The translations under genes were made by a program, and so were the position numbers. From positions 1-18,204 of the IMG/VR virus record IMGVR_UViG_2737471864_000007: DNA of 18,204 bases; one strand, written 5' to 3'. The stretch comes from a virus. Its lineage: Duplodnaviria; Heunggongvirae; Uroviricota; Caudoviricetes. Under the pieces are notes generated by a model. That model searched no databases. It had not been told where the DNA came from and saw nothing but the letters and a program-made list of their open reading frames with translations. Shown here in pieces: positions 3,849 to 18,204 of the stretch (position 1 is the stretch's first letter; every line of letters starts with the position of its first letter).

Positions 3849-3903
3849 TTTTGATAACCTCATTTCTTTTGCTACACAACTATTTCACTAGTTAATTTCG
3901 CTG

Positions 3904-4440
3904 TCAGGATTGCTTATGTATCTTATGCAGCTCTTTAAAACGTTCCATAAACATCCCGTAGGCATGGCCCGGAGCCAGTGGAATAACTTTGAATATCTCT
4001 GTTGCCGGGATACCTTCCAGTACTGGCCAGAAAGAGCCATCATCAAGCCCGAGATCGCGGCGTTCGGTTGCCAACATGATGAGATCGGCATATTTCACAG
4101 GTGTACTCATAACCGGGGGTAACCCGTATTTCTCACGGATTACGGCGTCTATTTTTTCTTCCATCCGTTTATAGTCGGGAAGAAGGTGTTTCAGTGGTGC
4201 GGGGATGTCCTGACAATATGCTTCTGTTGCATCATGCATTAACGCTTCAAAAGCAAATTCCTGCGGTACCAGCTGGCTGCAAAGCACCGCATGTTGGGCG
4301 ACGCTGTAGAAGTGTGAAAGATGTCCTGCAAAGCGACAGATATTTGAAAGGGAAACCGCGATATCGTTAATAACGATGTCGTCTTTATTTATCTTGTCAT
4401 AATAAAAATGCTTCCCGGAAAAAGTTTTAATAAATGACAT
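3904..4440 (-). CDS. yfdR: HD-domain phosphohydrolase, YfdR-like (prophage CPS-53/KplE1 family)
   Basis: 178 aa from the ATG at 4440 (GGAGA 6 nt upstream); the track's longer form uses an upstream GTG. HD-type H..HD metal-binding context (ALMHDATEAY). Identity to E. coli K-12 YfdR is from recollection of sequence, size and gene order; needs BLASTP. Confidence 0.75.
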   Translation of the reverse strand: MSFIKTFSGKHFYYDKINKDDIVINDIAVSLSNICRFAGHLSHFYSVAQHAVLCSQLVPQEFAFEALMHDATEAYCQDIPAPLKHLLPDYKRMEEKIDAVIREKYGLPPVMSTPVKYADLIMLATERRDLGLDDGSFWPVLEGIPATEIFKVIPLAPGHAYGMFMERFKELHKIHKQS

Positions 4441-4567
4441 TTTGTTCTCCACGTATATGCGCTGCACCGCGCTGAATTTTGGTTAAAGAAAACCCTCGCC
4501 ATCAGGTGATTATTGAGTCAATTATGTTTCCATAAATGCCCCCGCAGGGGCATTTGCAGTAATGAAA

Positions 4568-5392
4568 TCAGGCGTTGAAAGTACCAATAAAGGTTTTTAC
4601 TTTGCTGTCTTTGAATTTTTCAACTAGCAGATCACGAAATTCGTTAGCCATTTCTTCCTGTACTGCTTCCAGCTGAATAATGCGCTGAACCAGTACAGGG
4701 CGATCACCAGTGATAATGCTGAGTCGTAATTTAAACGGACGTTCTTTCAGGCCTTCAAACGGAACGCATTTAAATTCAAATGCCACTGGCATAATGTCTT
4801 TGGTCTTCGCTTCGACAGACTCCATCAGGGAGCGTTTGCCGCTGAAGTCATTGTCTTCAAAATCAGCAGTCTGGTTCGCTTCAATTGTGATTTTACGGAT
4901 CGCTGCAGCCGCTTTGGTTGCCTGAATGGCGTCACCATTAGCATCAAAGCCCACAAGGTAGTCTGCCCAGTCTTCAATCCATTCTGCCAGTGACTTCTGG
5001 GAGTTACGTTCGCCGTTAACAGACAACAGAGCAGAGAACGGGGCTGTCTTTTTCAGTTTGAGAGTGGCGGTGTTATCTGCGTGACCTGGTTCATCAATAG
5101 TACCCAGGTTAAGTACACTGACGGCACGCATATTATCAGCATCGATAAAGCAGCCGGTGCCTTTATCTGCAAGATCTTTAGAATAACGGGTAAAGTCATC
5201 GATGTTGGCAGTGGAAAGCGCACCACGGAAACGGAAGCGATTTAAATTAAATTTTTCCAGATCATGAATGCGGAAATTCTCAGGCAATGCTACAGCATCG
5301 GCACCAATCTTATTGATAATTTCATTAACACCCTGAGCAGAAATAAGGGCATGGATTTGATTAATTGCGGTTGCGTCTAAGTTCTGAGACAT
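4568..5392 (-). CDS. yfdQ: YfdQ-like protein (DUF2303 family), function unknown
   Basis: 274 aa, ATG at 5392 with GAGGA 8 nt upstream. Size and position between yfdP-like and yfdR-like genes match the K-12 CPS-53 order as I recall it; needs BLASTP. Confidence 0.75.
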
Positions 5393-5457
5393 AATAAGTC
5401 CTCACTATATAAAGATATTCAGTGATGAGATAAATAATCAGTTTATTAATAACGATA

Positions 5458-5820
5458 TTAACGACCTGCTGCGCGGAGTTTTCCGTCAGGCTCACCGGCA
5501 AGAGTCAGTAATTGTCCCTGGTCTTCCTGCAGAATAGTCAGGCGACCACCGCGATTGACATACATCGGCGTTTCTGTGGTGTCTTCTTCGGAAATTTTCC
5601 CGCGGTTAGTCGGGCGAACATATGAGAGTTTGTGTTTGATTTTCACACGGTTCTCATCAAATGGTTCGATTTCCAGGTTGAGTGAGACCTTACCTTTGGT
5701 TTTCGTGTTCATCACACCGGAAGCGACTTCACTGAGAACTGCGCCGATTTTGGTTTCAAATACGCCGCCGTCCAGCTCCCCGATAAATGCCTGCACATCA
5801 GTACTGCGTTCGCTAGCCAT
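5458..5820 (-). CDS. yfdP: YfdP-like hypothetical protein
   Basis: 120 aa starting MASERSTDVQAFIGELDGG at the ATG at 5820, with AGGAG 8 nt upstream. The track's 226-aa form extends into the GC-rich ORF-free segment with an Arg/Cys/Pro-rich, non-protein-like translation, so the extension is rejected. Confidence 0.65.
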   Translation of the reverse strand: MASERSTDVQAFIGELDGGVFETKIGAVLSEVASGVMNTKTKGKVSLNLEIEPFDENRVKIKHKLSYVRPTNRGKISEEDTTETPMYVNRGGRLTILQEDQGQLLTLAGEPDGKLRAAGR

Positions 5821-5870
5821 TTTGCTGCTCCTCATCATATCGACCCTGCAAGGCCGATTAGTTTCTCCAC

Positions 5871-6074
5871 AAAACAGAGAAGAACACCTGCGGTGGCAGC
5901 CGCCCGGATGGATTGAGTTATGAGCCCGTCGTCCGGTGATGTTCTTCTCTGTTTTGTAAAAAGGACGGTACCAGCCGGAAGCAAGGGTACAAGCTGGTAC
6001 CGCCAGGACTACACACAGCATAAAGTTGTGGTGCCGGGTGCCTCCCGGTGCCTGGCGAAGGTTGCACACCAGGC
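5871..6074. other. GC-rich ORF-free segment with multiple perfect inverted repeats; candidate structured RNA or MITE-like element
   Basis: 16-bp perfect inverted repeat AAAACAGAGAAGAACA (5871-5886) / TGTTCTTCTCTGTTTT (5940-5955) around a 53-nt GC-rich spacer. 9-bp perfect stem GGTACCAGC (5967-5975) / GCTGGTACC (5993-6001). 6-bp stem GCCTGG (6050-6055) / CCAGGC (6069-6074). No convincing ORF in any frame. Confidence 0.3.
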
Positions 6075-6219
6075 GGGTGGGTATCCACAGAAGGTCGACT
6101 GTCAGCCTCAACCTTAACCCGCGTGCGCTGAGCCGCATTCACCACAACGCTAAGGATTCTCTCTGGTTGAAAATACTTAGCTGTTATGTGCCTGCTTTTA
6201 GCCACATCAGGCGAGGTGG

Positions 6220-6272
6220 ATCTGGTTATTCCCCAACAATAAGGATTCGGTTAATCTGGTTATCCCCAACAA
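6220..6272 (+). repeat. Two direct repeats ATCTGGTTAT(T)CCCCAACAA, 34 bp apart, just upstream of the ORF at 6289
   Basis: Copies at 6220-6239 and 6254-6272. The associated motif TAAGGATTC also occurs twice (6151-6159, 6240-6248), and CTGGTTGA at 6163-6170 is a partial third copy. Confidence 0.6.
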
Positions 6273-6288
6273 CGCAAAAGGAAAAGAA

Positions 6289-6723
6289 ATGTCCGGTAAT
6301 ATCTATACGCTGTACAAATCCCACTGTGAAAATGTTGGAAAGTATCGGGGCATTGAAATCAGTGGGGTAGTGTCATCAGTCGAAATAAGCAAAGTTGAAT
6401 CAAGAGCAACATTACTTACTCTTCTGGACCTTGTCTTACATGAGCACCGGAAGAAATTCGGCACTCCCTATAATCAGTTGAATGGGAAAAAGGCTCTGGT
6501 TCACCTTATTCTGATGAAGCATCACTGGATGCCAAAACAGATTAATGAGATGAAATTTGATGAACTTCTTCTTTCAATTCAGGATGAACTCACGCTTGAT
6601 AAAATAAGCGTAACCGCCCAGAAATTTTTAGATTATCGAGACTGGAGATCACAAATTCATCACTTTGATGATTTTGACGAAAATGAATGGGATCCTAATT
6701 TGTCTGCACAATATCTAAAGTAG
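6289..6723 (+). CDS. Hypothetical protein, 144 aa, acidic C-terminus; AT-rich gene oriented against the leftward early operon
   Basis: ATG at 6289 with AAGGA 7 nt upstream. Protein-like translation with no recognisable motif. 3' end overlaps the convergent small ORF 6695-6901 by 29 nt. Confidence 0.6.
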   Translation: MSGNIYTLYKSHCENVGKYRGIEISGVVSSVEISKVESRATLLTLLDLVLHEHRKKFGTPYNQLNGKKALVHLILMKHHWMPKQINEMKFDELLLSIQDELTLDKISVTAQKFLDYRDWRSQIHHFDDFDENEWDPNLSAQYLK

Positions 6724-6901
6724 CATCCTGTGATAAAACTGTGATTTCCTGATCCAGTTTTTTTAAGGAGCCTATTGTTTCCTGTCGATAAGACAGCACT
6801 TCACGAAGCTGGTTTATAGCTGCCAGCTTCTTTGTCATCCACTCGTAAATTTCCTCATCTGTGTAGCCAGGCGCGACGATTTTTGGTTCTGTTTTGTGCA
6901 T
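6695..6901 (-). CDS. Small hypothetical protein, 68 aa; first gene of the putative leftward (pL-like) operon
   Basis: ATG at 6901 preceded by a strong GAGGAGGTG Shine-Dalgarno 5-6 nt upstream; the track's longer form starts at a TTG. Helical-looking, not Arg-rich, so not an obvious N homolog. Confidence 0.55.
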   Translation of the reverse strand: MHKTEPKIVAPGYTDEEIYEWMTKKLAAINQLREVLSYRQETIGSLKKLDQEITVLSQDATLDIVQTN

Positions 6902-6947
6902 TTCACACCTCCTCAAGTTATCAGTTACTTGTTGATGGGGACCAGAT

Positions 6948-6959
6948 TGTTAAAGAGCT
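6948..6959 (-). promoter_or_regulatory. boxA-like element GCTCTTTAACAA; candidate antitermination (nut-like) site on the leftward transcript
   Basis: Minus-strand 12-mer matches the rrn/lambdoid boxA consensus TGCTCTTTAACAA at 12 of 13 positions. Lies between the OL-like block and the first leftward ORF. No convincing boxB hairpin identified. Confidence 0.4.
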
Positions 6960-6960
6960 A

Positions 6961-6984
6961 AGCGTCCTGTAGGGCGCTTTTTTG
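6961..6984 (+). terminator. Rho-independent terminator (plus strand)
   Basis: AGCGTCC-TGTA-GGGCGCT stem (7 bp, one G-U pair) followed by TTTTTT. The same hairpin on the minus strand has a C-A mismatch and no U-tract, so it is directional. Confidence 0.55.
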
Positions 6985-7058
6985 TTGCTAACGAATCATC
7001 CTGGACTTCATATGCCCCAGGCGGCTACTTCGTGGGCGTCCTGCCTGTTCGTTGTTTT

Positions 7059-7120
7059 AACACCTTTAAGTTGTAATTTAGTTGTGGCTTTGAATATTGT
7101 CAACAACTTTATGTGGTTTG
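7059..7120. promoter_or_regulatory. OL-like operator/promoter region
   Basis: Block AACACCTTTAAGTTGTAATTTAGTTGTGG (7059-7087) plus ACAACTTTATGT (7104-7115). Both recur in the cI-cro intergenic region; contains AAGTTGT/ACAACTT inverted half-sites. Confidence 0.5.
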
Positions 7121-7166
7121 AACGAGTAGCCAAGGAGTGCAAGGATTATCAAAAAAAGGAGGTTGT

Positions 7167-8057
7167 ATGGAAGACGCGCTTTACGCTTTTAATTACACAC
7201 AGAACCGGGACAAGTTATTTGCTAACTTGATTAGCATCATTGATGGAATCATTGCAGATGGAGTTGTCCGTGAAGAGGAGGTTCTTTACTTAGATACATG
7301 GTTACTTGAAGCAAAGCAGATTATCAATAATGGAGTTATAAAAAGTCTATCAGCACGGGTGTCGGATATTCTTGCGGATGGAATAATCACATCAGAAGAA
7401 CGTGATGACCTTAAAAATAGCCTTCTCCAAATACAGAGGGAAATTCTTGATATCCCTGAAATTGATTTTTACTCCAAGGATGTAGATGTCCATTTACTTA
7501 ATGGACTATGTAAAGGATTAATTGCTGATCGGAACTTAACTCAAGAAGAAATAAGATATCTTAATTGGTGGCTTGAGCAAAATGGAGCTTTGAAGAACAA
7601 CTACCCAGGAAAAAAACTTTATGCACTTGTAAAGGAAATTCTTAAAGATGGGGTTATTACTGAAGATGAGAGTTTAACTCTACATAAGGCATTAGTAGAC
7701 TTCACAGGATGTGACTTGGAAAGTGGGGTGGTGGATGGTTTGGCGACCAGGCTGCCTATTGATGTAGGGGCTTCGATAGAGTTAGAGGGTAAAACCTATT
7801 GTCTTACAGGCACTTTTGTTGCAGGAAAGAGAGCCGTAGTTGAAAATTTGATTAAAAATGCTGGTGGGAACATCAGTAGTGGAATTACTCAAAAGTTGGA
7901 TTTTTTAGTAATTGGGACGCTTTCCTCCCGTGATTGGAAATTCTCAAGTCACGGAAGGAAGATCGAAAAAGCTATATCTTATAGGGATGATAATGGTGCA
8001 AAACTTAAAATTATTTCTGAAGAAATGCTTTTCGATGCATTACCAAGTTCGCGATGA
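7167..8057 (+). CDS. TerB-like helical-repeat protein with C-terminal BRCT domain; AT-rich cargo gene between OL and cI
   Basis: ATG at 7167 with AGGAGG 4 nt upstream; the track's form starts at a GTG at 7137. Four repeats of the pattern (A/K)DG.I(T/R).EE...L (IADGVVREEEVLYL, LADGIITSEERDDL, IADRNLTQEEIRYL, LKDGVITEDESLTL). C-terminal GKTYCLTGTF...GGNISSGITQKLDFLVIG...GRKIEKA...GAKLKIISEEMLFDAL resembles the LigA-type BRCT fold. Convergent 18-nt overlap with the cI 3' end. Confidence 0.75.
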   Translation: MEDALYAFNYTQNRDKLFANLISIIDGIIADGVVREEEVLYLDTWLLEAKQIINNGVIKSLSARVSDILADGIITSEERDDLKNSLLQIQREILDIPEIDFYSKDVDVHLLNGLCKGLIADRNLTQEEIRYLNWWLEQNGALKNNYPGKKLYALVKEILKDGVITEDESLTLHKALVDFTGCDLESGVVDGLATRLPIDVGASIELEGKTYCLTGTFVAGKRAVVENLIKNAGGNISSGITQKLDFLVIGTLSSRDWKFSSHGRKIEKAISYRDDNGAKLKIISEEMLFDALPSSR

Positions 8058-8726
8058 CCAGAATACCCTACCTATAACATGAATTCTGGCTCGTCTATCT
8101 TCAAAGGTGAGTATTTCATCTGGGTACTCATCTTTGTTGAAGCTTCTAAGAATCAAGCCACCGTCAGGTAAGTTGATAAGTATTTTAACCCTTAGCAATA
8201 CACCATCTCGTACGGCATAAAGATCGCCATCACGAATAGGAACGGTTTGAGAAATATCAACGGCAACAAGATCTCCATTATTGAGAACCGGTAATAAACT
8301 GTTCCCCCATATTTTTACGATCTTGGCATTAGATGCACATACGCCAGATTTTCTCAAATCTGCTCTTCTTAACGGAAACCAGTCAATAGCTGATTCAACT
8401 ATTTCAGCCAGACATCCGTTACCTGCCGATAACTCGACATCTAAAACAGGAATGTTTACGAAAATATCGGGGTCTAATGCGGTGCTTTCTGCTTCTTTTA
8501 CAACAAGATCAGGTATGGATGCGTTATCTTCAATACCAAGTTGTAACCACTTTTGTGATACACCTAAAACTTTTGCAATTTCTTTAATTTTGCGCGGTTG
8601 TAGAGTTTCGCCATTCTCTATTTTGGCTACAGATTGTTGTGAAAGTCCAATTTTTTCAGCTAGTTGAGCTTGGCTCATGCCAGCTTTCTCTCTACCTATC
8701 TTTAATCGTTCTGCCAGTGTTTTCAC
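8040..8726 (-). CDS. cI: CI-like prophage repressor (XRE-type HTH + LexA/S24 peptidase-like autocleavage domain)
   Basis: 228 aa. N-terminal HTH (LAERLKIGREKAGMSQAQLAEKIGLSQQSVAKIENGE) and C-terminal S24-like region (GNSLLP...). GTG start at 8726 with a GAGAGGGA SD-like sequence. Divergent from cro. Confidence 0.85.
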   Translation of the reverse strand: MKTLAERLKIGREKAGMSQAQLAEKIGLSQQSVAKIENGETLQPRKIKEIAKVLGVSQKWLQLGIEDNASIPDLVVKEAESTALDPDIFVNIPVLDVELSAGNGCLAEIVESAIDWFPLRRADLRKSGVCASNAKIVKIWGNSLLPVLNNGDLVAVDISQTVPIRDGDLYAVRDGVLLRVKILINLPDGGLILRSFNKDEYPDEILTFEDRRARIHVIGRVFWSSRTW

Positions 8727-8755
8727 AACATATCCCTCTCTTTTTTGATGAGGTT

Positions 8756-8850
8756 ACAACTTTATGTTTTAGCTTTCCAACACCTAAAAGTTGTGATAAA
8801 AGTTGTTAATGTTGTATTCTTGCAACTCGTAACAACTTAACTACCAAAAA
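8756..8850. promoter_or_regulatory. OR-like operator/promoter region between cI and cro
   Basis: ACAACTTTATGT (8756-8767) and block AACACCTAAAAGTTGTGATAAAAGTTGT (8779-8806) match the OL-like region; a further ACAACTT at 8832-8838. Divergent cI and cro starts flank it. Confidence 0.55.
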
Positions 8851-8861
8851 AGGAGAAAGCT

Positions 8862-9110
8862 ATGACACCTGAGCAATTAGCCTTATCGGAGGCAATCGCT
8901 CTGGCTGGTGGTCAATCAGAATTGGCTCGGAAGCTCACAGCCAGCAGCGGTCATTTAGTAAAGCAACAACATGTCTGGAACTGGTTGAACAGAGAAAAGC
9001 GTCCCCCTGCAAAGCTCTCGATATTCATTGAAAAGACCACTGGCATATCAAAAGAAAAATTACGTCCAGATATTTTTCAAAAGATTAAAGATTCATCAGC
9101 TGAAAAGTAA
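8862..9110 (+). CDS. cro: Cro-like HTH regulator (YdaS/Cro family)
   Basis: 82 aa, ATG at 8862 with AAGGAG upstream. HTH-like GGQSELARKLTASSGHLVKQQ. Position immediately right of OR and divergent from cI. Confidence 0.75.
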   Translation: MTPEQLALSEAIALAGGQSELARKLTASSGHLVKQQHVWNWLNREKRPPAKLSIFIEKTTGISKEKLRPDIFQKIKDSSAEK

Positions 9111-9132
9111 CCACAGTTTTAAGGAGATAGCC

Positions 9133-9690
9133 GTGGGTAAGCATCACTGGAAAATAGAAAAACAGCCTGAGTGGTACGTGAAAGCTGTCAGAAAAACTAT
9201 CGCGGCGTTGCCGGGTGGTTACGCTGAAGCCGCTGACTGGCTGGATGTAACAGAGAACGCTTTATTCAACCGCCTTCGTGCAGATGGCGATCAGATTTTT
9301 CCGCTGGGATGGGCAATGGTTTTACAGCGTGCTGGTGGCACTCACTTCATTGCTGATGCTGTGGCGCAGTCTGCAAATGGCGTATTTGTGTCTCTTCCTG
9401 ACGTCGAGGATGTGGACAACGCCGATATTAACCAGCGTCTGCTGGAAGTCATTGAACAGATCGGCAGTTATTCAAAACAGATTCGTTCAGCAATCGAAGA
9501 CGGTGTAGTGGAACCGCATGAGAAGACAGCAATTAACGACGAGCTGTATCTCTCAATTTCGAAGCTGCAGGAGCATGCAGCACTGGTCTACAAAATCTTT
9601 TGCATTTCAGAAAGTAATGACGCCCGCGAGTGTGCAGCTCCGGGCGTCGTGGCGTCGATTGCTTCTGGTTGTGGAGAAACTAACGCATGA
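9133..9690 (+). CDS. CII-like regulatory protein (YdaT-like family)
   Basis: 185 aa from the GTG at 9133 (AAGGAG 6 nt upstream). The track's longer form starts inside cro and is rejected. Position after cro matches the Rac-type racR/ydaS/ydaT arrangement as I recall it; family assignment tentative. Confidence 0.6.
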
Positions 9691-10025
9691 ACAGTTTAAC
9701 AACACACTACCGTCGCTCGCAACTGATTGCGCTTCCTGTACCGGGTGGAAAAGCGAAGGTGGAATATTGCTATGCAGTGAATGTACCAGGTGACAGGGAA
9801 ATTGTAACCCACAGCTTTGCAGAGTGGGCTGTGGGTGATTTCAACCGGCAGAAGGAGACAGTCCTTTGCGACAAGTTAACCGCTGGTTCAAAGATCACTA
9901 CGGAGTGCCCGTCAGAGTCATTCGTTGGGAGCCGGAAACACAACGGGTTATCTACCTCCGCGAAGGTTATGAGCATGAATGCTTCAGTCCGCTCGAACAG
10001 TTTCGTCGTAAATTCAGGGAAATAG
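9687..10025 (+). CDS. Hypothetical protein; possibly frameshifted or overlapped by an alternative-frame ORF (9866-10045)
   Basis: ATG overlaps the cII-like stop (ATGA). The C-terminal third of the translation looks non-protein-like, while a second frame (TTG at 9866 after AGGAG, stop at 10043-10045) reads ...[58 protein letters not shown]. Confidence 0.35.
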
Positions 10026-10034
10026 AGGTCGGTC

Positions 10035-10304
10035 ATGAGCACTAAATTAACCGGCTATGTATGGGATGGTTGCGCTGTATCAGGCATGAAGTTATCCAGT
10101 GTGGCAATTATGGCCCGCCTGGCTGATTTCAGTAATGACGAAGGTGTGTGCTGGCCATCAATTGAAACCATTGCCCGTCAGATTGGCGCGGGGATGAGTA
10201 CCGTCAGAACGGCTACCGTGGCATTTGAAGAGAAGTATGGCTCCCAGCTGGAGCTGATATTTCGTTTTATCGATCGTGCGCTGGCAATAGGCGTACTGGC
10301 GTAA
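10035..10304 (+). CDS. Short HTH protein resembling the N-terminal domain of phage/plasmid replication initiators (HTH_36-like); probable remnant of the replication module
   Basis: 89 aa. KLSSVAIMARLADFSNDEGVCWPSIETIARQIGAGMSTVRTA matches the typical pattern of this winged-helix class (...ALADHANDDG.CWPS.ETLA...G.S.RTV.RA). Ends directly before the Q-like gene. Confidence 0.55.
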   Translation: MSTKLTGYVWDGCAVSGMKLSSVAIMARLADFSNDEGVCWPSIETIARQIGAGMSTVRTATVAFEEKYGSQLELIFRFIDRALAIGVLA

Positions 10305-10317
10305 GTGGAGACGCAAA

Positions 10318-10896
10318 ATGATTAATCCTTCCGAAGTTGGTAAATCCGGGGAAATGGCACGACTACGTACACTGGAAAGTGTATGGATACAGGGCAAACT
10401 GCGTATGTGGGGGCGCTGGTCATTCATCGGCGGCGGCTCAGGCGGCAATATGTTTAACCAGTTGCTGGCCTCCGGGAAAATCACCAAGACAGCCATCAAT
10501 GACGCTTTACGTCGCATGAAGAAGTCAGGCCTGACAAAACCAGAGCTCGAAGCGTTCTTTCGTGAAATTATCGATGGCAAAAATAAGACAGGCATTTCGT
10601 TCTGCTCAGATGATGAGGGTGTATGCATTGATGGCGTTATCGCGGCTGTGCTGATCTCAAATGGTCATAACGGATTGTTTGATGTGCTACTGGACAGATA
10701 CCGCTATCGCAAGAGCAAACGTCTCATGGCAGAGCAACTTCAAAAGCGCCATCCAGAATGGTGCTACATGACCTGCCGCCGCCGAATTGATTCCTGGCTA
10801 AGTTTGGCAGAATTCATGCTTTACGCACCAATGTGTGATGCATTCGGCACAAATAGCAGCAGATTTAAGTTGCAATGTGAGCCAGGAGGTGCTTAA
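10318..10896 (+). CDS. Putative late-gene antiterminator (Q-like) with Cys pairs
   Basis: 192 aa. Position immediately upstream of a terminator and the lysis cassette. Two Cys pairs (CSDDEGVC, CYMTC) are compatible with a zinc-binding Q-type protein. Assigned by position and architecture, not by recognised homology. Confidence 0.5.
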   Translation: MINPSEVGKSGEMARLRTLESVWIQGKLRMWGRWSFIGGGSGGNMFNQLLASGKITKTAINDALRRMKKSGLTKPELEAFFREIIDGKNKTGISFCSDDEGVCIDGVIAAVLISNGHNGLFDVLLDRYRYRKSKRLMAEQLQKRHPEWCYMTCRRRIDSWLSLAEFMLYAPMCDAFGTNSSRFKLQCEPGGA

Positions 10897-10946
10897 ATTG
10901 TGTTACGCTCGGGACGCAAAAGCGAACAGAGCAACAAACATTAAGA

Positions 10947-10970
10947 ACCCGCCAGCGTGCGGGTTTTTTG
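10947..10970 (+). terminator. Rho-independent terminator downstream of the Q-like gene (tR'-like)
   Basis: ACCCGC-CAGCGT-GCGGGT stem followed by TTTTTT. Confidence 0.6.
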
Positions 10971-11009
10971 TTATCATTACCTTTTAAACTTCTAATGGAA
11001 GGTAATGAT

Positions 11010-11582
11010 ATGTGGTTAGGGATTCCTTTTATCTATGTTCAGGAACGGCTGGCAGACACAATTAGCATCAGTAAAATACCATCTATTTCTATAGAATCTT
11101 CATTCTCCTCCGAAACGATTATAGCCGCATTTATTAGTGGATTGGTTCCAGCACTGATATCTTTGTATGTGATTAGACAAAATAACGAGTCTGTCCGATA
11201 TCAACAAAAGCAAGAGAATAAAAGACATTATTCTGCGCATTTAAGGGTGGTAGTTAGCGAGTATGCATACCAACTTAATAAAGTTAAAGAGATACATGCC
11301 GAATGGGTTTCTGTTAGCACAACAATGATCCAATATAAGCTAACAAGCTTAGAAGAAAAAATGTCTGAGGCTCTATTAGAACTGGAAAGATTTAAAGTTA
11401 GCTTGTTAATTTCTATTCCTGATGATGAAGATGGTGCATTGTTTAAGAAATCAATAAATACCATCTCAGAAAAGCTATCTTCATTAATTAAGGGGAGGCA
11501 TATATCAATGGTTGATGGAATGGGATGGGCTGGCCTTTATATGTCATTCATTTCAGATGCTAATAAGTATCTAAATAAATAA
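11010..11582 (+). CDS. AT-rich moron: membrane-anchored helical protein, function unknown
   Basis: ATG at 11010 with GGAAGG about 7 nt upstream; alternative in-frame ATG at 10995; the track's form uses a TTG at 10968 inside the terminator. One predicted TM helix (IIAAFISGLVPALISLYVI) followed by a charged helical region. Flanked by terminators on both sides. Confidence 0.6.
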   Translation: MWLGIPFIYVQERLADTISISKIPSISIESSFSSETIIAAFISGLVPALISLYVIRQNNESVRYQQKQENKRHYSAHLRVVVSEYAYQLNKVKEIHAEWVSVSTTMIQYKLTSLEEKMSEALLELERFKVSLLISIPDDEDGALFKKSINTISEKLSSLIKGRHISMVDGMGWAGLYMSFISDANKYLNK

Positions 11583-11604
11583 AATATATTTTATTAAAAT
11601 ATCA

Positions 11605-11633
11605 AAAGCCACTTAATTGTGGCTTTTTGTTTT
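11605..11633 (+). terminator. Rho-independent terminator downstream of the moron
   Basis: AGCCAC-TTAATT-GTGGCT stem followed by TTTTT G TTTT. Confidence 0.6.
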
Positions 11634-11674
11634 CCCTCTTTTTGAGAGGACTCACAGCAATAAGAGGGGGCTAA

Positions 11675-12070
11675 ATGTCCGATCCTGTTTCTGGCACTAC
11701 GGTTGCCGCTGGTGGCCTTATGGGAGCCAGTGTTTTTGGTATCGCAACTGGTATTGATTATGGCGTGGTGTTTGGCGCTTTCGCAGGAGCTGTGTTCTAC
11801 GTAGCGACAGCAGCAAACATCAGTAGGATGAAGTTGGTTGGCTATTTCGTGACATCGTTTATTGTCGGCGTTCTTGGCGCTGGGCTTGTTGGTTCGTACC
11901 TTGCCAAATGGACAGGCTACAGCGACAGGCCACTTGATGCTCTCGGCGCAGTGGCAGTAGCTGCGTTGGCCATCAAACTTCTTACCTTCATCAACAGTCA
12001 GGATCTAGGAAGCCTGTTCAGTATGCTTTCGCGATTGCGTGGAGGAGGGACCAGCAATGGTAACAAGTGA
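11675..12070 (+). CDS. Putative holin (multi-TM small membrane protein)
   Basis: 131 aa, Gly/Ala-rich hydrophobic segments consistent with 3-4 TM helices. AAGAGGGGG SD upstream. First gene of the lysis cassette. Confidence 0.65.
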   Translation: MSDPVSGTTVAAGGLMGASVFGIATGIDYGVVFGAFAGAVFYVATAANISRMKLVGYFVTSFIVGVLGAGLVGSYLAKWTGYSDRPLDALGAVAVAALAIKLLTFINSQDLGSLFSMLSRLRGGGTSNGNK

Positions 12071-12338
12071 TCCTTCAGCGATGATCAATGCGGGTATTTG
12101 CGCGGTCATTGTAATTGCTCTGATGTTTTACCAACGTGGCGGTGCCAGACATCGCCCGATAGTTTCTCTTCTCGCTTATTTCACGGTGCTGGTTTATGCC
12201 AGCATCCCGTTCCGCTATCTGTTCGGCCTCTACCAGGAATCACACTGGCTGGTGGTCATCGTTAACATCCTGATATGCGCCGCCGTGCTATGGGCTCGGG
12301 GAAACGTGGCGCGTCTTATTGATGCTCTGAGGCACTAA
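12057..12338 (+). CDS. Second lysis-cassette membrane protein (holin/antiholin-like)
   Basis: About 93 aa from the ATG at 12057 (GGAGGAGGGA SD 6 nt upstream); the track's form starts at a GTG at 12039. Three hydrophobic segments. Overlaps the holin stop and the endolysin start. Confidence 0.55.
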   Translation: MVTSDPSAMINAGICAVIVIALMFYQRGGARHRPIVSLLAYFTVLVYASIPFRYLFGLYQESHWLVVIVNILICAAVLWARGNVARLIDALRH

Positions 12339-12952
12339 TGAACCAATCACAATTTCAACAGGCGGCTGTTATTAGCGCCGGGTTAGCTGCGCGCTGGTTT
12401 CCGCACATTGATGCGGCGATGAAGGAATTCGGCATTACAGCACCAGCGGATCAGGCAATGTTTATCGCTCAGGTAGGCCATGAGTCGATGGGGTTTAGCG
12501 CCGTAGTTGAAAATTTTAACTACACACCATCTGCGCTGGTGGCGACGTTCGGAAAGAGGATCACACAGCAGCAGGCTGATGCCCTTGGCAGAACATCCGG
12601 ACATGCAGCTCGTCAGGATGCTATTGCCAATCTGGTGTATAGCAACCGACTGGGTAACAAAGCACCCGGTGATGGCTGGAAATATCGTGGTAGAGGATTA
12701 ATTCAAATCACTGGCCTCCATAATTATCGCATCTGTGGCGCGGAGCTGAAGTTAGATCTGGTGACTTCACCTGAACAACTTGAACAGGAACTACAGGCCG
12801 CGCGCTCAGCTGCATGGTTCTACACCTCTAAAGGCTGCATGATCTACGGTGCCGATATTAATCGTGTTACGCGTATCATTAACGGCGGTCTGAACGGTAT
12901 TGAGGATCGTAAAGTCCGATACAACAAGGCGCGGGCGGCGCTGCTGGTATGA
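12338..12952 (+). CDS. Endolysin, glycoside hydrolase family 19 (chitinase-like lysozyme)
   Basis: 204 aa. GH19-type motifs FIAQVGHESMGF...NF.Y...YRGRGLIQITGLHNY. Start overlaps the upstream stop (TAATG). Confidence 0.8.
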   Translation: MNQSQFQQAAVISAGLAARWFPHIDAAMKEFGITAPADQAMFIAQVGHESMGFSAVVENFNYTPSALVATFGKRITQQQADALGRTSGHAARQDAIANLVYSNRLGNKAPGDGWKYRGRGLIQITGLHNYRICGAELKLDLVTSPEQLEQELQAARSAAWFYTSKGCMIYGADINRVTRIINGGLNGIEDRKVRYNKARAALLV

Positions 12953-13341
12953 AGATGAGTTATTGGGCGCTCATTTTAACGTTTATTGCTTGTGTTGCTG
13001 GTGGTCTTGTCTGGTCAGCGAATCACTATCATGGAAAGTTTCTGGAGGAGCAGAAGCGTGCTGACGCTGCGGAACAGCGAGCTGATTCTACTGAAGCTAT
13101 CACCGCGAATGTCCTGCGAACTATGGCAATAACGAACATCATTCAGGAGGCGAATCAACATGCAAAACAGCAGATCGCACTGGAGTCACAGAGAACCCAG
13201 GAAGATATCAAAGTGGCTATTGCGAATGATGATTGCGCTTCACGTCCTGTGCCTGCTACCGCTGCTGACCGGTTGCGGAAGTACGCGGACAGTTTACGTG
13301 AGCGATCCGGTGGCACCCCTGCCAGCCAGCCTGACTTCTGA
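12949..13341 (+). CDS. Rz-like inner-membrane spanin (i-spanin)
   Basis: 130 aa. N-terminal TM (WALILTFIACVAGGLVW) followed by a charged coiled-coil-like region. Start overlaps the endolysin stop (ATGA). Confidence 0.7.
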   Translation: MKMSYWALILTFIACVAGGLVWSANHYHGKFLEEQKRADAAEQRADSTEAITANVLRTMAITNIIQEANQHAKQQIALESQRTQEDIKVAIANDDCASRPVPATAADRLRKYADSLRERSGGTPASQPDF

Positions 13342-13498
13342 TACTCCAGTACCGTTTATACCCAATCCGCTGACGTATGGTACCAGTCTGGAGTTGAATG
13401 TTGCTCTATTGTCAGCCTTGGGACAATGTAATTTTGATAAAACTGGAATCAGAAATATTGAATCACGGCGCGCTATTTTGCATTCGAAAGACAAATAG
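13226..13498 (+). CDS. Rz1-like outer-membrane lipoprotein spanin (o-spanin), overlapping the 3' part of the Rz-like gene in another frame
   Basis: Lipobox LLTGC after a short signal peptide (MMIALHVLCLLPLLTGC). Pro-rich mature region. Starts inside the Rz-like gene and extends past its stop. Exact start (13226 or 13229) uncertain. Confidence 0.6.
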   Translation: MMIALHVLCLLPLLTGCGSTRTVYVSDPVAPLPASLTSDTPVPFIPNPLTYGTSLELNVALLSALGQCNFDKTGIRNIESRRAILHSKDK

Positions 13499-13866
13499 CT
13501 CGAGTTATATTTTTCATTATCGTTGCGAATGCTCCTAATAAAGCTGTGTATTATGGTAATTTTATAAAGCCTATGGGTTTAAGTTCAGATGCTAGCGTTT
13601 TTATAGCGTAATGTAGCAGCTTACATAAAATATGCATCGTGATTAACTATTAGGCCAACCTTTTGGACCAATATGAAAGTGGAAGTTTATACAAATCGTT
13701 TGTCGATGATTAAACATGTGTCTAGTAGCGCTAGTCATGAACAGGTTTATTACGTATCATTTTGTGTAGATTATCGAGAGTACAACTAGTAGAGCAGCTA
13801 ATCTTTAGATAGTGCCAGTGATGTTCACTTGCGATAAACTAACCTTTTCATTCAGTGGAGGTTATT

Positions 13867-14301
13867 ATGTGGCATACATTACTTAACTGGCCTTGGGGAA
13901 CTGTGTGGTCAGCTGTATCGGCTTTAGGTTCAATTGTAACTGTTACATTAGGTTTTTGGGCAATGAATGTTTGGCGGCGACAGGAGGCTCTGAAGGCCAA
14001 AATGGCTCTGAAAATGGCAGTGGCTGATTATTCAAATGCATTATCACAACTACCTTTATCTCTTAGTCGTAATGTTCGTATTGAAAAAAGGGCCGAGCTA
14101 CGAGAGTTAAATCATAAATTAAATGCTGTTAATAATGCTTTTTTGATATGCGAACATATGTTGGAAAAATACCCACGTGTAAACAGCGGTTGTCGTTCTT
14201 TATCTGTTGCCCACAAAGAATATATTAGAATGAGAGATAATAGTATTCAGGCGAAACATATTTGTCATAATATTCTTTCAGAGCAGTTTGTATTCAAATG
14301 A
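13867..14301 (+). CDS. AT-rich moron: membrane-anchored helical protein, function unknown
   Basis: About 144 aa from the ATG at 13867 (GGAGG 6 nt upstream). N-terminal TM (WSAVSALGSIVTVTLGFWAMNVW) then a helical, Lys/Arg-rich region. Preceded by about 360 bp of AT-rich non-coding DNA. Confidence 0.55.
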   Translation: MWHTLLNWPWGTVWSAVSALGSIVTVTLGFWAMNVWRRQEALKAKMALKMAVADYSNALSQLPLSLSRNVRIEKRAELRELNHKLNAVNNAFLICEHMLEKYPRVNSGCRSLSVAHKEYIRMRDNSIQAKHICHNILSEQFVFK

Positions 14302-14428
14302 AAATGAACGATTGGTATTTACTTGCCGTTTATTCATTGGATTGAAAAGTCTATTTAACAAACCGTGTTAAAGCGGTTTCTGATTGCAGTTATGGTTAGA
14401 TATTTAACGAAAACTACAGGGATAATAG

Positions 14429-14779
14429 ATGCCTCCACGAACCCCAAAAGCCTGCCGCGTTCGCGGCTGCCGCCATACCACGACTGACCCGTCAGGCTAT
14501 TGCGAAAGCCACAAAAGCGAAGGCTGGAAGCAATATAAGCCAGGCCAGTCCCGACACCAGCGCGGTTATGGTTCTAAGTGGGACGTTATCCGCGCGCGTG
14601 TGCTGAAGCGTGACAAAGGCCTGTGCCAGTTGTGCCTGCGTGCCGGTGTGGTGCGCGAGGCGAAAACCGTTGACCACATCATCCCTAAAGCGCATGGCGG
14701 CTCTGATGCCGACAGTAATCTGCAGAGTCTGTGCTGGCTGTGTCATAAGGCGAAGACGGCCCGTGAACGGCTGAAGTAA
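14429..14779 (+). CDS. HNH endonuclease (phage terminase-associated)
   Basis: 116 aa. Cys pairs (CRVRGC...C.SH) and the HNH core DHIIPKAHGGSDADSNLQSLCWLCH. Located immediately upstream of terS, as in HK97-like cos phages. Confidence 0.85.
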   Translation: MPPRTPKACRVRGCRHTTTDPSGYCESHKSEGWKQYKPGQSRHQRGYGSKWDVIRARVLKRDKGLCQLCLRAGVVREAKTVDHIIPKAHGGSDADSNLQSLCWLCHKAKTARERLK

Positions 14780-14805
14780 GAACCAGTTCCCACTGCCAGA
14801 GGGGA

Positions 14806-14866
14806 GGGGCGGGTCAAATCCCTGTGACCTGACGTCTTCCGGACTGCCCGCCCCATCGTTTTTTTA
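14806..14866 (+). other. GC-rich long-range stem plus T-tract between HNH and terS; candidate cos-region element or terminator
   Basis: GGGGCGGG (14806-14813) pairs with CCCGCCCC (14847-14854), followed by ATCG and a run of seven T. Confidence 0.3.
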
Positions 14867-14904
14867 TACCCGCGAAAAATGAAATTTAACCAGGAGTGCC
14901 GCAT

Positions 14905-15399
14905 ATGGCTGGAACGGCGGGGCGTTCCGGGCGTCGCCCCAAGCCAACGGCGCGCAAGGCGCTGGCCGGAAACCCCGGCAAGCGAGCCCTGAATAAAGAT
15001 GAACCTGTTTTTACGCCCATCAAAGGTGTTGAGCCACCGGAGTGGTTCGCTGAAGAAGATCTCCCTCTCGCCACGATCATGTGGCAACTGACAACCAAAG
15101 AACTCTGCGGTCAGGGCCTGCTGTGCGTGACTGACCTCGCGGTGCTTGAGCGGTGGTGCGTGGCCTACGAGTTCTGGCGACGTGCCGTGAAAAATATTGC
15201 CAGACAGGGCAACACCATCACCGGTGCAATGGGCGGTATGGTCAAAAATCCGGAGCTGACCGCCAAAAAAGAACAGGAGTCCGAGATGAGCAGTACGGGG
15301 GCAATGCTCGGACTCGACCCCAGCAGCCGCCAGCGTCTGATTGGCCTGGCGGGGAAGAAGAAAGCCACTAACCCGTTTCTGAAAATTATCGAATCATGA
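14905..15399 (+). CDS. terS: Terminase small subunit (P27-like family)
   Basis: About 164 aa from the ATG at 14905 (CAGGAG upstream); the track's form starts at a GTG at 14896. Basic N-terminus. Stop overlaps the terL start (ATGA). Confidence 0.75.
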
Positions 15400-17129
15400 G
15401 CCGGAAATCTTACCCCAACGTAAATGCTGCAAATCAGTATGCCCGGGATGTCGTGCGCGGAAAGATTATTGCCTGCCAGTTTGTGATTCAGGCCTGCCAG
15501 CGCCATCTTGATGACCTGATGGCGGAAAAAAGTAAGTCGTTTCGTTACCGCTTCGACAAGGACCTGGCTGAACGGGCCGCCAAATTTATTCAGCTGTTGC
15601 CGCACACCAAGGGTGAGTGGGCATTTAAACGGATGCCCATCACGCTGGAGCCGTGGCAGCTATTTGTGATCTGCTGTGCGTTTGGCTGGGTCAATAAAGG
15701 CACCCGGTTGCGCCGCTTCCGGGAGGTGTATACCGAAATTCCCCGTAAGAACGGCAAATCGGCAATCTCTGCCGGTGTTGCCCTGTATTGTTTTGCCTGT
15801 GATAACGAGTTCGGCGCGGAAGTGTATTCCGGTGCCACGACGGAGAAACAGGCGTGGGAAGTCTTTCGTCCGGCACGACTGATGTGTAAACGCACACCCA
15901 TGCTGACGGAAGCGTTCGGGATTGAGGTTAACGCCTCAAACATGAACCGTCCGGAGGATGGTGCGCGGTTTGAACCGCTGATCGGTAACCCCGGTGATGG
16001 TTCATCACCCCACTGTGCCGTGGTGGATGAATATCACGAGCACGCCACAGATGCGCTTTACACCACGATGCTTACCGGGATGGGGGCGCGACGCCAGCCA
16101 CTGATGTGGGCCATTACCACCGCCGGGTACAACATTGAGGGGCCGTGCTACGACAAACGGCGGGAAGTCATCGAGATGCTCAACGGCTCGGTGCCAAACG
16201 ATGAACTGTTCGGGATCATCTATACCGTTGATGAAGGTGACGACTGGACCGACCCGCAGGTGCTGGAAAAAGCCAATCCAAATATTGGCGTGTCGGTTTA
16301 TCGCGAATTTTTGTTAAGTCAGCAGCAGCGTGCGAAAAATAACGCCCGTCTGGCAAACGTCTTTAAAACAAAACACCTCAATATCTGGGTGTCGGCGCGT
16401 TCGGCGTATTTCAACCTGGTGAGCTGGCAGAGCTGCGAGGATAAATCACTGACCCTTGAGCAGTTCGAGGGGCAGCCGTGCATTCTGGCCTTTGACCTGG
16501 CGCGTAAGCTGGATATGAACAGCATGGCGCGACTTTATACCCGCGAGATTGACGGTAAAACGCATTACTACAGTGTGGCCCCGCGTTTCTGGGTACCGTA
16601 TGACACGGTGTACAGCGTCGAGAAAAATGAAGATCGCCGGACAGCCGAACGCTTTCAGAAATGGGTGGAAATGGGCGTTCTGACCGTTACCGATGGTGCG
16701 GAGGTGGATTATCGCTACATCCTCGAAGAGGCCAAAGCGGCGAACAAAATCAGCCCGGTCAGTGAGTCACCCATCGACCCCTTCGGGGCGACCGGGCTGT
16801 CACATGACCTTGCTGATGAAGACCTGAACCCCGTCACCATCATTCAGAACTACACCAACATGTCCGATCCGATGAAAGAGCTGGAAGCGGCGATTGAATC
16901 GGGGCGCTTTCATCATGACGGCAATCCCATCATGACCTGGTGTATCGGCAACGTGGTCGGCAAAACCATTCCGGGTAACGATGATGTGGTGAAGCCCGTC
17001 AAGGAGCAGGCGGAAAACAAAATCGATGGTGCAGTTGCGCTGATTATGGCGGTTGGCAGAGCCATGCTGTACGAGAAAGAAGACACGCTGTCTGATCACA
17101 TTGAGTCCTACGGGATCCGCTCGCTTTAA
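15396..17129 (+). CDS. terL: Terminase large subunit (ATPase/nuclease)
   Basis: 577 aa. Walker A-like GKS context ([12 protein letters not shown]) and Walker B-like hydrophobic-DE (AVVDEYHEH). Size and position after terS. Confidence 0.85.
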
Positions 17130-17140
17130 CTGAGGTAATT

Positions 17141-17323
17141 ATGATCATGCTGATTCTCGCGCCTCTGGTGGGCGTGCTGGGTGCGCTTTTGCTGGCGTAT
17201 GGTGCCTGGCTGATTTATCCCCCGGCGGGTTTTGTTGTTGCCGGGGCGCTGTGCCTGTTCTGGTCGTGGCTGGTGGCGCGATATCTCGACCGTACACAGT
17301 CGTCTGTCGGCGGAGGTAAATAG
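17141..17323 (+). CDS. Small two-TM membrane protein, hypothetical
   Basis: 60 aa. GAGGT SD 4 nt upstream of the ATG. Two hydrophobic helices. Sits at the apparent junction between the terminase and tail genes. Confidence 0.45.
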
Positions 17324-17389
17324 TGTTCTTTTCGGGATTATTTCAACGAAAAAGTGACGCACCGGTGACCACGCCAGCAGAGCTGGCGG

Positions 17390-17872
17390 ATGACCGAACA
17401 ACAGACCCTGCTGTCTCATGGCGTGGCAACGGCGTATGTCGAAAGCGGGGTACTGCGCATTCAGCGTGATGTCACCACGTACAGGAAAAACGCTTACGGG
17501 GTTGCGGATAACAGCTACCTCGACAGTGAGACACTGCATACCAGCGCGTATGTACTGCGCAAACTGAAATCCGTCATTACCAGTAAGTACGGGCGTCACA
17601 AGCTTGCCAGTGACGGTACCCGCTTTGGTCCCGGTCAGGCGATTGTCACCCCGGCGGTGATCAAAGGGGAACTGCTGGCAACCTACCGTCAGCTCGAGCG
17701 TGCGGGGATCGTGGAAAACTACGAACTGTTCAAGCAGTACCTGGTTGTGGAGCGTGATGCCAGCGATCCGAACCGCCTGAACACGCTGTTCCCGCCTGAC
17801 TATGTTAACCAGTTGCGTGTCTTTGCCGTGGTTAACCAGTTCCGTCTTCAGTATTCAGAGGAGTCTGCATAA
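17390..17872 (+). CDS. Phage structural protein, possibly a C-terminal fragment of a contractile-tail sheath protein
   Basis: 160 aa. No strong SD. In-frame stops upstream leave no room for the N-terminal two-thirds of a sheath. Followed directly by a tail-tube-like gene. Family assignment tentative. Confidence 0.4.
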   Translation: MTEQQTLLSHGVATAYVESGVLRIQRDVTTYRKNAYGVADNSYLDSETLHTSAYVLRKLKSVITSKYGRHKLASDGTRFGPGQAIVTPAVIKGELLATYRQLERAGIVENYELFKQYLVVERDASDPNRLNTLFPPDYVNQLRVFAVVNQFRLQYSEESA

Positions 17873-18204
17873 TGGCCCGTATCGGGGGAACCTGTTATTT
17901 CAAAATTGACGGTCAGCAGCTATCGCTGACCGGCGGCATTGAGGTGCCCATGAACAGGACGGTCAATGATGACATCATCGGCCTGGACGGTTCAGTGGAC
18001 CGCAAGGAAACTCACCGTGCGCCTTATGTCAAAGGGACCTTCAAGGTGCCGAAGAATTTTCCGGTGAGCAAAATCACCTCGTCTGATGAGATGACCATCA
18101 CTGCCGAGCTGGCGAACGGTCAGGTCTATGTACTGTCGTCTGCCTGGCTGCACGGCGAAGCGAACCATAATGCCGAAGAAGGCACGTGTAGATTCAATCT
18201 GTCA
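17873..18204 (+). CDS. Putative phage tail tube protein (5' partial; continues beyond window end)
   Basis: ATG at 17873 with GAGGAG 8 nt upstream, overlapping the upstream stop. Translation MARIGGTCYFKIDGQQLSLTGGIEVPMNRTV... is open to the window end. Tail-tube call is by pattern and position. Confidence 0.45.

Follow-up and report, generated by a model that had tools for sequence, protein, structure and literature searches.

The interval between the antiterminator and the lysis genes was analyzed in an 18,204-nucleotide (nt) stretch of DNA from a virus of the class Caudoviricetes (IMG/VR record IMGVR_UViG_2737471864_000007, positions 1 to 18,204; the whole stretch is referred to below as the window). 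The interval holds a gene for a 190-amino-acid (aa) predicted membrane protein, set between two terminators, and the comparison with related loci argues that this gene is an accessory cargo, a moron, in a variable Q-to-lysis slot. A first-pass annotation of the same DNA had noticed four features here, and all of them were recovered: the GC stem plus T6 terminator after the Q-like gene, the AT-rich open reading frame (ORF) with its own Shine–Dalgarno (SD) sequence, the product with one transmembrane (TM) helix and a helical domain, for which structure and topology predictions were run, and the second terminator in front of the holin gene. The features of the interval are as follows.

10318–10896, + strand: Q-like antiterminator gene (DUF1133/AntQ family; PF06576, PF06530, PHROG 753), the upstream scaffold gene
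10870–10909, + strand: promoter-like late leader overlapping the Q stop codon, a putative pR'-like promoter judged by conservation
10943–10969, + strand: terminator 1, a tR'-like scaffold element made of a hairpin and T6 (fold energy, covariation)
10969–10977, + strand: TGTTATCAT, an extended −10-like motif (TGnTATnAT), candidate promoter of the cargo gene and left end of the cargo module (positional conservation)
10972–11010, + strand: leader stem-loop, 5′ arm 10972–10986 and 3′ arm 10996–11010 (fold energy, covariation)
11010–11582, + strand: cargo gene for a 190-aa protein, predicted to be a bitopic inner-membrane protein (translation, PHROG 18859, codon comparison, AlphaFold2)
11604–11633, + strand: terminator 2, a bidirectional scaffold element with A-run and T-run flanks (fold energy, conservation)

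Two Terminators Frame a Variable Slot

Terminator 1 lies 47 nt past the stop codon of the Q-like gene. Its stem (10943–10952/10959–10968) has the GC core AACCCGC/GCGGGTT and is followed by T6 (10964–10969); the RNA fold of −15.6 kcal/mol (z = −4.1) was matched by 0 of 200 shuffles, and related loci carry the compensatory stem variants AGCCTGC/GCGGGCT and AGCCCAC/GTGGGTT. In terminator 2, 11604–11612 pairs with 11619–11627 in front of a T-rich tract (11623–11633), and the fold (−13.8 kcal/mol, z = −5.8) was likewise reached by none of 200 shuffles. Six terminator-like sites were observed in the region, compared with 2.3 ± 1.4 in shuffled sequences.

The slot was compared across 30 loci encoding relatives of the Q-like protein, taken from species-representative genomes, and the holin gene was located in each. 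In two of them, L011 of Kluyvera (4580–4737) and L014 of Enterobacter (4580–4735), the slot is empty. The gap from the DUF1133 stop codon to the holin gene measures 156–158 nt there vs. 778 nt in the window, and within it the same conserved leader is followed by hairpins 1 and 2, each with a T-run and some 10 nt from the other, and then by the conserved holin leader. The GC content of this interval is 0.48–0.49 in the empty slots and 0.35 in the window, where it falls to 0.31–0.36 across 11050–11650 vs. about 0.47–0.53 on either side. A hairpin at the same pre-holin position was found in the empty slots and next to other cargos (GGCTGCC..GGCGGCC, GGCTACC..GGTGGCC), and the alignments of related loci show both terminators retained, with compensatory stem changes, whatever gene lies between them. 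Similarity to the lysis modules of mEp390 and the Klebsiella phages begins at about 11619, within terminator 2. Since both terminators occur in empty slots and are kept regardless of the cargo, they belong to the phage scaffold and not to the insert. They are resident tandem terminators following the conserved promoter-like leader of the Q-like gene, with the cargo placed between them.

The close family of the cargo protein was present in 0 of the 30 DUF1133 loci, and the holin_8 cassette occurs without the gene in mEp390, the Klebsiella phages, and loci L011, L013, L014, L016, L019, L021, and L026. The 190-aa protein is not needed for lysis, since siblings of the phage that have this cassette lack the gene. 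Among 5426 complete E. coli genomes, five carry it, at 99.9% identity; it is a rare prophage gene and is exchanged horizontally. Where the slot is occupied by something else, the following genes were identified.

L003, 1997–2815, − strand: TIR-TM gene (mEp390 gp47; PADLOC E 1.6e-57)
L019, 4652–5683, − strand: gene for an AbiJ_NTD4 protein with an RxxxxH motif
L017, 4664–5388, + strand: HicA/HicB
L022, 4721–6109, + strand: gene for an AAA_16/STAND-like ATPase
L024, 5294–6202, + strand: gene for an SDH-type ClpP-like protease

Several unannotated proteins are encoded in the slot of other loci. The L012 cargo may or may not be related to the 190-aa family (probability 13.6%). Judging by its occupants, the slot resembles a hotspot of defence and toxin–antitoxin genes.

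The additional DNA is thus missing from the same site in close relatives and differs in base composition from its neighbours, as is characteristic of morons. A strong terminator also stands 3′ of the gene, with equivalents in empty slots and next to other cargos. The first-pass annotation had proposed an autonomously acquired accessory gene. Its accessory status is borne out by the slots that are empty or hold unrelated genes and by the AT-richness, and its being a gene by the purifying selection described below; the autonomy read from the flanking terminators is not supported, as those hairpins belong to the scaffold. A source of autonomy that had gone unseen may be the TGnTATnAT motif after terminator 1 together with the hairpin over the SD sequence.

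The Cargo Gene and Its Product

The ORF begins with the ATG at 11010, ends with the stop codon at 11580–11582, and is preceded by the SD sequence GGAAGG (10997–11002). Codon comparison with three homologues gave a proportion of synonymous differences (pS) of 0.73–0.98 vs. a proportion of nonsynonymous differences (pN) of 0.07–0.45; only these two values are given because synonymous sites are saturated and the dN/dS ratio is therefore uninterpretable. The pN was 0.07–0.17 over residues 1–66 and 0.28–0.45 over the remainder, hence the tail and the TM helix are the most constrained parts of the protein, and the helical domain is the most variable. These values and the conserved frame indicate a real gene under purifying selection, conserved as coding in its relatives.

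The product consists of a conserved N-terminal tail (residues 1–35), a TM helix (36–55), and a four-helix bundle (about 56–189). Residues 36–55 are the single hydrophobic span, with an average of 2.40 in a 19-residue Kyte–Doolittle window. The AlphaFold2 model, built with 53 sequences, had a mean predicted local distance difference test (pLDDT) score of 78.6 and placed helices at 34–105, 108–135, 140–161, and 167–189, the first of them extending from the membrane into the bundle; residues 1–30 were modeled with low confidence. Among the 53 members, the 15 residues flanking the TM helix contain on average 0.81 Lys+Arg on the N side vs. 2.94 on the C side, and the short, conserved tail is acidic. 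An N-out/C-in orientation is predicted for these reasons, which would leave the tail in the periplasm and the four-helix bundle in the cytoplasm.

Searches of Pfam, NCBIfam, and PADLOC with the cargo protein and 47 family members matched no family. At E <= 0.1, the PHROG search gave no annotated match, only the unannotated PHROG 18859, and the 50,697 deposited phage genomes searched by tblastn contained no match at all. No homology to the known exclusion proteins (HK97 gp15/YebO, P22 SieA/SieB, T4 Imm/Sp, and Cor) was detected in the PHROG and tblastn searches. The lysis families in Pfam, PHROG, and NCBIfam did not match the protein, whereas the neighbouring products do match holin, endolysin, and spanin-like families; no homology to a standard lysis or late regulatory component was found. 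A sequence profile search of the PDB returned no more than coiled coils and helical bundles of a designed or generic kind, and Foldseek against the viral structures of BFVD gave no match at E <= 0.001. The bundle resembles 4HB_MCP-like sensor domains of chemoreceptors and histidine kinases at 3–11% identity, with de novo designed bundles scoring equally. Such sensor domains are periplasmic and lie between two TM helices, whereas the cargo bundle is predicted to be cytoplasmic and to follow a single one; we take the match as an indication of fold class, not as evidence of homology.

A Prophage-Borne Family in Front of Lysis Cassettes

The cargo protein matched PHROG 18859, whose function is unannotated, with an E of 1.9e-56, residues 1–190 aligning with profile positions 2–195 of 198. 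A search of 5.8 billion proteins returned 24 clusters at E <= 0.001 (23 at E 2e-113 to 9e-46), nearly all full-length and all termed 'hypothetical', from Escherichia, Klebsiella, Enterobacter, and Citrobacter; across these genera, the 190-aa frame is kept full-length at 46–69% identity. When 1.8 billion representative proteins (50% clustering level) were searched with a profile, 66 relatives emerged. A second indexed search gave 81, all 'hypothetical' and without a Pfam domain, with Morganella, Providencia, Proteus, Klebsiella, Citrobacter, Pectobacterium, Yersinia, and E. coli as hosts. The family signature (W2, G4, P6, K22, P24, F32, W34, P47, Q65, and R79) is spread over the tail, the TM helix, and the first turn on the cytoplasmic side. 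By these searches, the family is uncharacterised, prophage-borne, and restricted to Enterobacterales; literature searches on DUF1133 and on the Q/lysis junction as a defence hotspot turned up no paper about it.

In all contexts examined, the family gene lies directly 5′ of the lysis cassette and on the same strand, in company with three Q types (DUF1133, PF06530, and PF03589) and at least four holin types. The DUF1133 contexts contain holin_8 or, in Pectobacterium, a different lysis module; the PF06530 Q was found with a Proteus-type holin, and the lambda-type PF03589 Q with holin_2 in Morganella. A Q-like gene is located upstream in every context except L066 and L068, both IMG/VR contigs. Among the contexts inspected, there were no non-prophage chromosomal homologues. 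Two explanations fit this strict position, a cassette adapted to a transcriptional niche or a function tied to late expression or lysis.

Several family loci had additional features. On the IMG/VR contig L057 (3001–3372), the family gene has a premature stop after 123 codons with coding-like sequence beyond it and is likely a pseudogene copy. The prophage of L008, which carries the 213-aa family member P0021, has a gene with the Acb2_Tad1_hairpin domain just past its lysis cassette (3182–3475; PF24729, a sponge family directed against the cyclic oligonucleotide-based antiphage signaling system, CBASS, and against Thoeris). In L041 (7666–8594) and L042 (7698–8594), the Proteus family member is followed at a distance of about 3 kb, past the lysis genes, by a gene with a Cap4_nuclease domain, which is an effector domain of the CBASS type. 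A second cargo accompanies the family gene in the Q-to-lysis interval of three loci: a DUF726 gene in Morganella (L043, 3089–3847), a 300-aa ORF on the − strand in Proteus (L041, 2917–3819), and an Endonuclease_NS gene in Pectobacterium (L047, 5097–5972). PADLOC matched 0 of these three second cargos.

Expression Signals of the Cargo Gene

The nonamer TGTTATCAT directly abuts the T-run of terminator 1 and fits the extended −10 consensus. TTTTTTGYTATNAT was found at the equivalent position in 13 fetched loci holding family members or the L012 cargo, including those with distant members of about 20% protein identity (L002, L045, and L047). TGnTATnAT is retained in 13 of 13 distinct leaders with the leader sequence downstream of it diverging. 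It is present in all family loci built on the DUF1133 scaffold, and it is missing from the empty slots and from the loci with a reverse-strand cargo. This pattern of conservation may reflect promoter activity.

The 3′ arm of the leader stem-loop contains the SD sequence and reaches the A of the ATG. In the window, the structure folds with −15.7 kcal/mol (z −4.97; 0 of 200 shuffles as good), and the stem-loops of five further loci have z-scores of −2.6 to −3.5. RNAalifold on the 13 distinct leaders showed double compensatory changes in all six consensus pairs; the paired share of cells was 88.5% (shuffles 71.6%, 0/500), and covariation scored 0.622 vs. 0.286 in shuffles, with lower scores for all slid registers. 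The use of G–U pairs points to a structure at the RNA level and not at the DNA level. An RNA begun 7 nt past the −10 motif would have no 5′ arm and is nearly unstructured, with only −3.2 kcal/mol in the window and a range of 0 to −3.2 kcal/mol. The hairpin would occlude the SD sequence on longer transcripts, so that translation may be shielded from late read-through, and we propose that transcripts from the gene's own promoter, having no 5′ arm, would be translatable.

A comparable logic is known from IS10/Tn10 fold-back inhibition, in which the 5′ segment of transcripts coming from outside pairs with the transposase ribosome-binding site and the element's own transcripts start inside the stem. 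The resemblance is one of analogy only, since the element, the gene, and the sequence differ and the start site is a predicted one here. New in this work are the invariant extended −10-like motif abutting terminator 1 and the covarying leader hairpin that occludes the SD sequence.

The Q-Like Gene, Its Late Leader, and Known Systems

The product of 10318–10896 matched DUF1133 (PF06576) end to end with an E of 1.8e-97, PHROG 753 ('anti-termination protein Q-like') with an E of 1.8e-70, and, more weakly, Phage_antitermQ (PF06530, E 1e-8). The final 30 nt of the gene and the next 45 nt are conserved beyond the level of the protein. They include TTGCAA (10870–10875), a 17-nt spacer, TGcTTAAAT (10890–10898), and TACGCT (10904–10909; TAnGCT) followed by CGGGACG; across the DUF1133 loci, whose proteins are 57–75% identical, TTG, GTGCTT(A/G)AATTGTG, and TAnGCTCGGGACG are invariant or nearly so. 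The leader at 10870–10909 is similar to the late promoters of lambdoid phages in having a −10-like repeat close to the promoter, and it may be active as one. The leader RNA would be about 65 nt long and would terminate at hairpin 1 (10968). Rfam isrJ matched exactly 10893–10968 with 21 bits, below its gathering score of 37. The promoter-like site at the end of Q, the −10-like repeat, and the intrinsic terminators are present and conserved, and they may make up a late leader of the pR'-tR' type.

In two of the DUF1133 loci, the sRNA isrK (RF01394) scored above its gathering threshold, 33 nt past the DUF1133 stop codon (L029 of E. coli, 4588–4664; L034 of Salmonella, 4588–4661), and was followed by a C4 antisense RNA; a further isrK copy lies at 1290–1366 of L034. 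The location of isrK 3′ of DUF1133 homologues ties this family to the studied AntQ/IsrK locus of Gifsy-1 (PMC4825925). In that prophage, isrK lies directly 3′ of the gene for AntQ, a Q-like protein whose antitermination activity has been demonstrated, and a promoter just past antQ gives rise to a 77-nt terminated RNA, whereas the read-through mRNA is translationally inactive (PMC4825925, Hershko-Shalev et al. 2016). The order antQ-isrK-orf45-anrP-isrJ has its counterpart in the window, where a Q-like gene, a putative promoter, a predicted short terminated RNA, a cargo, and a second terminator-ended element follow one another. Read-through transcripts are inactive in Gifsy-1 because of RNA structure, and we propose a parallel logic for the cargo leader. 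The two loci differ in the leader RNA, which here is not isrK and has only the sub-threshold isrJ-like match, and in the cargo, a membrane protein as opposed to an antirepressor. Inspection, by eye only, found no trans-activating pairing of the short RNA with the cargo leader. By analogy, the Gifsy-1 arrangement can serve as the characterised precedent for the layout of the Q-like gene and leader in the window.

The moron concept reportedly goes back to Juhala and colleagues in 2000, and HK97 gene 15 is said to have been treated by Cumby and colleagues in 2012. The definition of a moron is given in the literature together with HK97 gp15, a membrane protein that excludes superinfecting phages (PMC3594210). 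Like the morons and HK97 gp15, the cargo is extra DNA absent from siblings, lower in GC, a single gene bracketed by transcription signals, with a small inner-membrane product predicted. It has no sequence relation to HK97 gp15/YebO and heads the lysis cassette, whereas the HK97 gene belongs to the tail operon; in contrast to typical morons, the flanking terminators are part of the scaffold and not of the insert. The Q-to-lysis junction is a classic moron slot of lambdoid phages, stx in Stx phages being one example, and stx, lom, and bor are examples of conversion genes. In the related Shigella phage SfIV, a low-GC moron, orf47–49, lies between Q and the lysis cassette (PMC3851460). The cargo described here shares with the stx and SfIV cargos the slot 3′ of the antiterminator and a terminator and 5′ of the holin gene, and with the SfIV insert the low GC content; it differs in gene content, in the exact insertion point between tandem terminators, and in the covarying SD-occluding leader. 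It resembles mEp390 gp47, assigned to TIR-TM by PADLOC, as a single accessory gene in the same slot and with the same holin module, but it encodes only a four-helix bundle with no TIR or enzymatic domain, and the mEp390 gene is on the opposite strand.

Flanking Genes and Other Parts of the Window

Downstream of terminator 2, the genes follow in the order Phage_holin_8, Phage_holin_3_7, GH19 endolysin, and spanin-like genes.

11634–11674, + strand: conserved holin leader, CCCTC-N5-GAGAGGACTCAC-N-AAGAGGGGG, invariant in all holin_8 loci with any cargo
11675–12070, + strand: first holin gene, Phage_holin_8 (PF16931, E 2.4e-39)
12039–12338, + strand: Phage_holin_3_7 gene (family match)
12338–12952, + strand: GH19 endolysin gene (family match)

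Within the holin leader, CCCTCTT has two alternative partners, the adjacent GAGAGG and the holin SD sequence AAGAGGG. The fold of the leader was not significant (z-score = −0.29), and control of holin translation by this leader is only a suspicion.

The window is a mosaic. Its 99.7% match to the L3Cip3 prophage is confined to 10210–15532, a part that takes in the end of the DUF968 gene, the lysis genes, and HNH; matches in the early region are scattered, at 94–97%, and window coverage never exceeded 62% in complete E. coli genomes. A second AT-rich island (13450–14350, GC 0.33–0.41) separates the spanin genes from the HNH/terminase genes. An ORF on its + strand (13867–14301) encodes a product of 144 aa that combines an N-terminal TM helix with a helical domain and has no Pfam family. 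The island looks like a second moron of similar architecture; membership of its product in the 190-aa cargo family was ruled out (hhalign probability 0.4%).

Interpretation and Rival Explanations

The best explanation, in our view slightly more probable than not, is a cassette docked between the tandem terminators of a lambdoid prophage of the AntQ/DUF1133 type, encoding a bitopic membrane protein whose expression is boxed in from both sides. Terminator 1 would end a constitutive short leader RNA. On RNA reading through it, the leader hairpin would bury the SD sequence, and the extended −10-like motif within the 5′ arm of that hairpin would yield transcripts without the arm. Terminator 2 would block cargo transcripts from entering the holin genes. 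The protein would accordingly be present at a modest level in the lysogen and be shielded from the very strong Q-dependent late transcription; an overproduced membrane protein beside the holin could set off premature lysis.

For the protein encoded by such a cassette, the most likely role, though one that we hold to be somewhat short of probable, is an anti-phage function that the prophage provides by exclusion or abortive infection. It is favoured by the company in the slot (TIR-TM, AbiJ-like, HicAB, and STAND), by a protein whose membrane part is conserved and whose cytoplasmic part varies, and by the apparent shielding from late translation. The conserved tail and TM helix might then be the part acting at the membrane, and the variable cytoplasmic bundle the part conferring specificity. 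A stronger version, namely a dedicated family of single-gene, membrane-anchored anti-phage proteins, wired to lysogeny by a promoter nested in a stem and granted self-immunity through RNA structure, with the tandem terminators as a general docking site for defence genes, seems to us rather unlikely.

Several observations weigh against the boxed-in cassette and the anti-phage function. No homology links the cargo protein to any function, its fold is a generic four-helix bundle, and its topology was predicted from the positive-inside rule alone. A candidate relationship with KwaA of the Kiwa system (PADLOC 14.6 bits, E 0.0067) was rejected: the match was absent in the other 46 family members, KwaA is multi-pass whereas the cargo protein has one TM helix, and there is no KwaB partner gene. 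A scan for consensus sigma-70 −35/−10 elements detected no promoter 5′ of the ORF, only a single weak site within it (11049–11077); the proposed promoter consists solely of the motif. The count of TGNTATNAT in the window was non-significant (1 found vs. 3.1 expected), and its weight comes only from conservation at the same position across loci. In the Morganella-type loci L043 and L060, the gene starts about 20 nt after the terminator with neither TGnTATnAT nor the SD hairpin, and in L066 the hairpin lies downstream of the motif and would fall within the transcript from the gene's own promoter. These loci rule out the promoter-in-stem design as a family-wide feature, and because of them wiring for the lysogen only is not general for the family. 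Finally, the constant co-orientation with the late operon and the adjacency to lysis genes may be explained equally well by a late or lysis-related role.

That role is the content of the main rival explanation, in which the cargo is a late-phase, lysis-linked accessory protein, encoded by the first gene of the Q-dependent late operon and acting at the inner membrane, for instance as an antiholin-like modulator of lysis timing or as a late block to superinfection or re-adsorption; the SD hairpin would merely lower translation. We find this explanation doubtful on balance, even though it accounts directly for the position of all family members examined, for a membrane protein being encoded beside holins, and for the Morganella-type loci, where read-through is the only evident source of transcription as no promoter-like motif is present. 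The same holin/endolysin cassette, however, occurs elsewhere without the gene or with unrelated cargos, including reverse-strand defence genes, and it already contains two holin-family genes; the protein has no similarity to holin or antiholin families in Pfam or PHROGs. A late role also leaves the invariant TGnTATnAT unexplained, and an SD-occluding stem of −9 to −16 kcal/mol on precisely the read-through RNA speaks against dependence on that RNA.

Less likely still, and in our view improbable, is a lysogenic-conversion factor serving host physiology or the interaction with the host animal, such as envelope stress tolerance, colonisation, or membrane transport. The Q-to-lysis junction is known for conversion genes (PMC3851460), the strains carrying the cargo came from humans, river water, and pond water, and the protein is predicted to be located in the membrane. 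Against this, the cargos identified in the slot are of the defence or toxin–antitoxin type with no virulence gene among them, the family was seen only in prophages among the contexts inspected, and the protein has no signal peptide, lipobox, or secreted-domain signature, with its large domain predicted to be cytoplasmic. A chance reading frame in an AT-rich spacer, with the hairpins as ends of the flanking operons, might be suspected from the base composition and from a gene without a Pfam family; we give it practically no credence, as the frame conserved among genera with saturated synonymous sites and low pN refutes it, and the PHROG 18859 match and the confident AlphaFold2 helical model stand against it as well.

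Morons between Q and the lysis genes are textbook knowledge, so the finding is unsurprising in kind, and its value lies in the exact anatomy and the expression logic. If the boxed-in cassette with an anti-phage product is the correct explanation, PHROG 18859 and its distant relatives would constitute a candidate single-gene membrane defence or exclusion factor of prophages in Escherichia, Klebsiella, Enterobacter, Citrobacter, Proteus, Morganella, Providencia, Pectobacterium, and Yersinia. The gap between the tandem terminators after DUF1133/AntQ antiterminators would be a precise cargo site that could be mined for accessory and defence genes, and the arrangement would offer a simple means of keeping a membrane protein expressed in the lysogen from being overproduced from the late promoter beside the holin.

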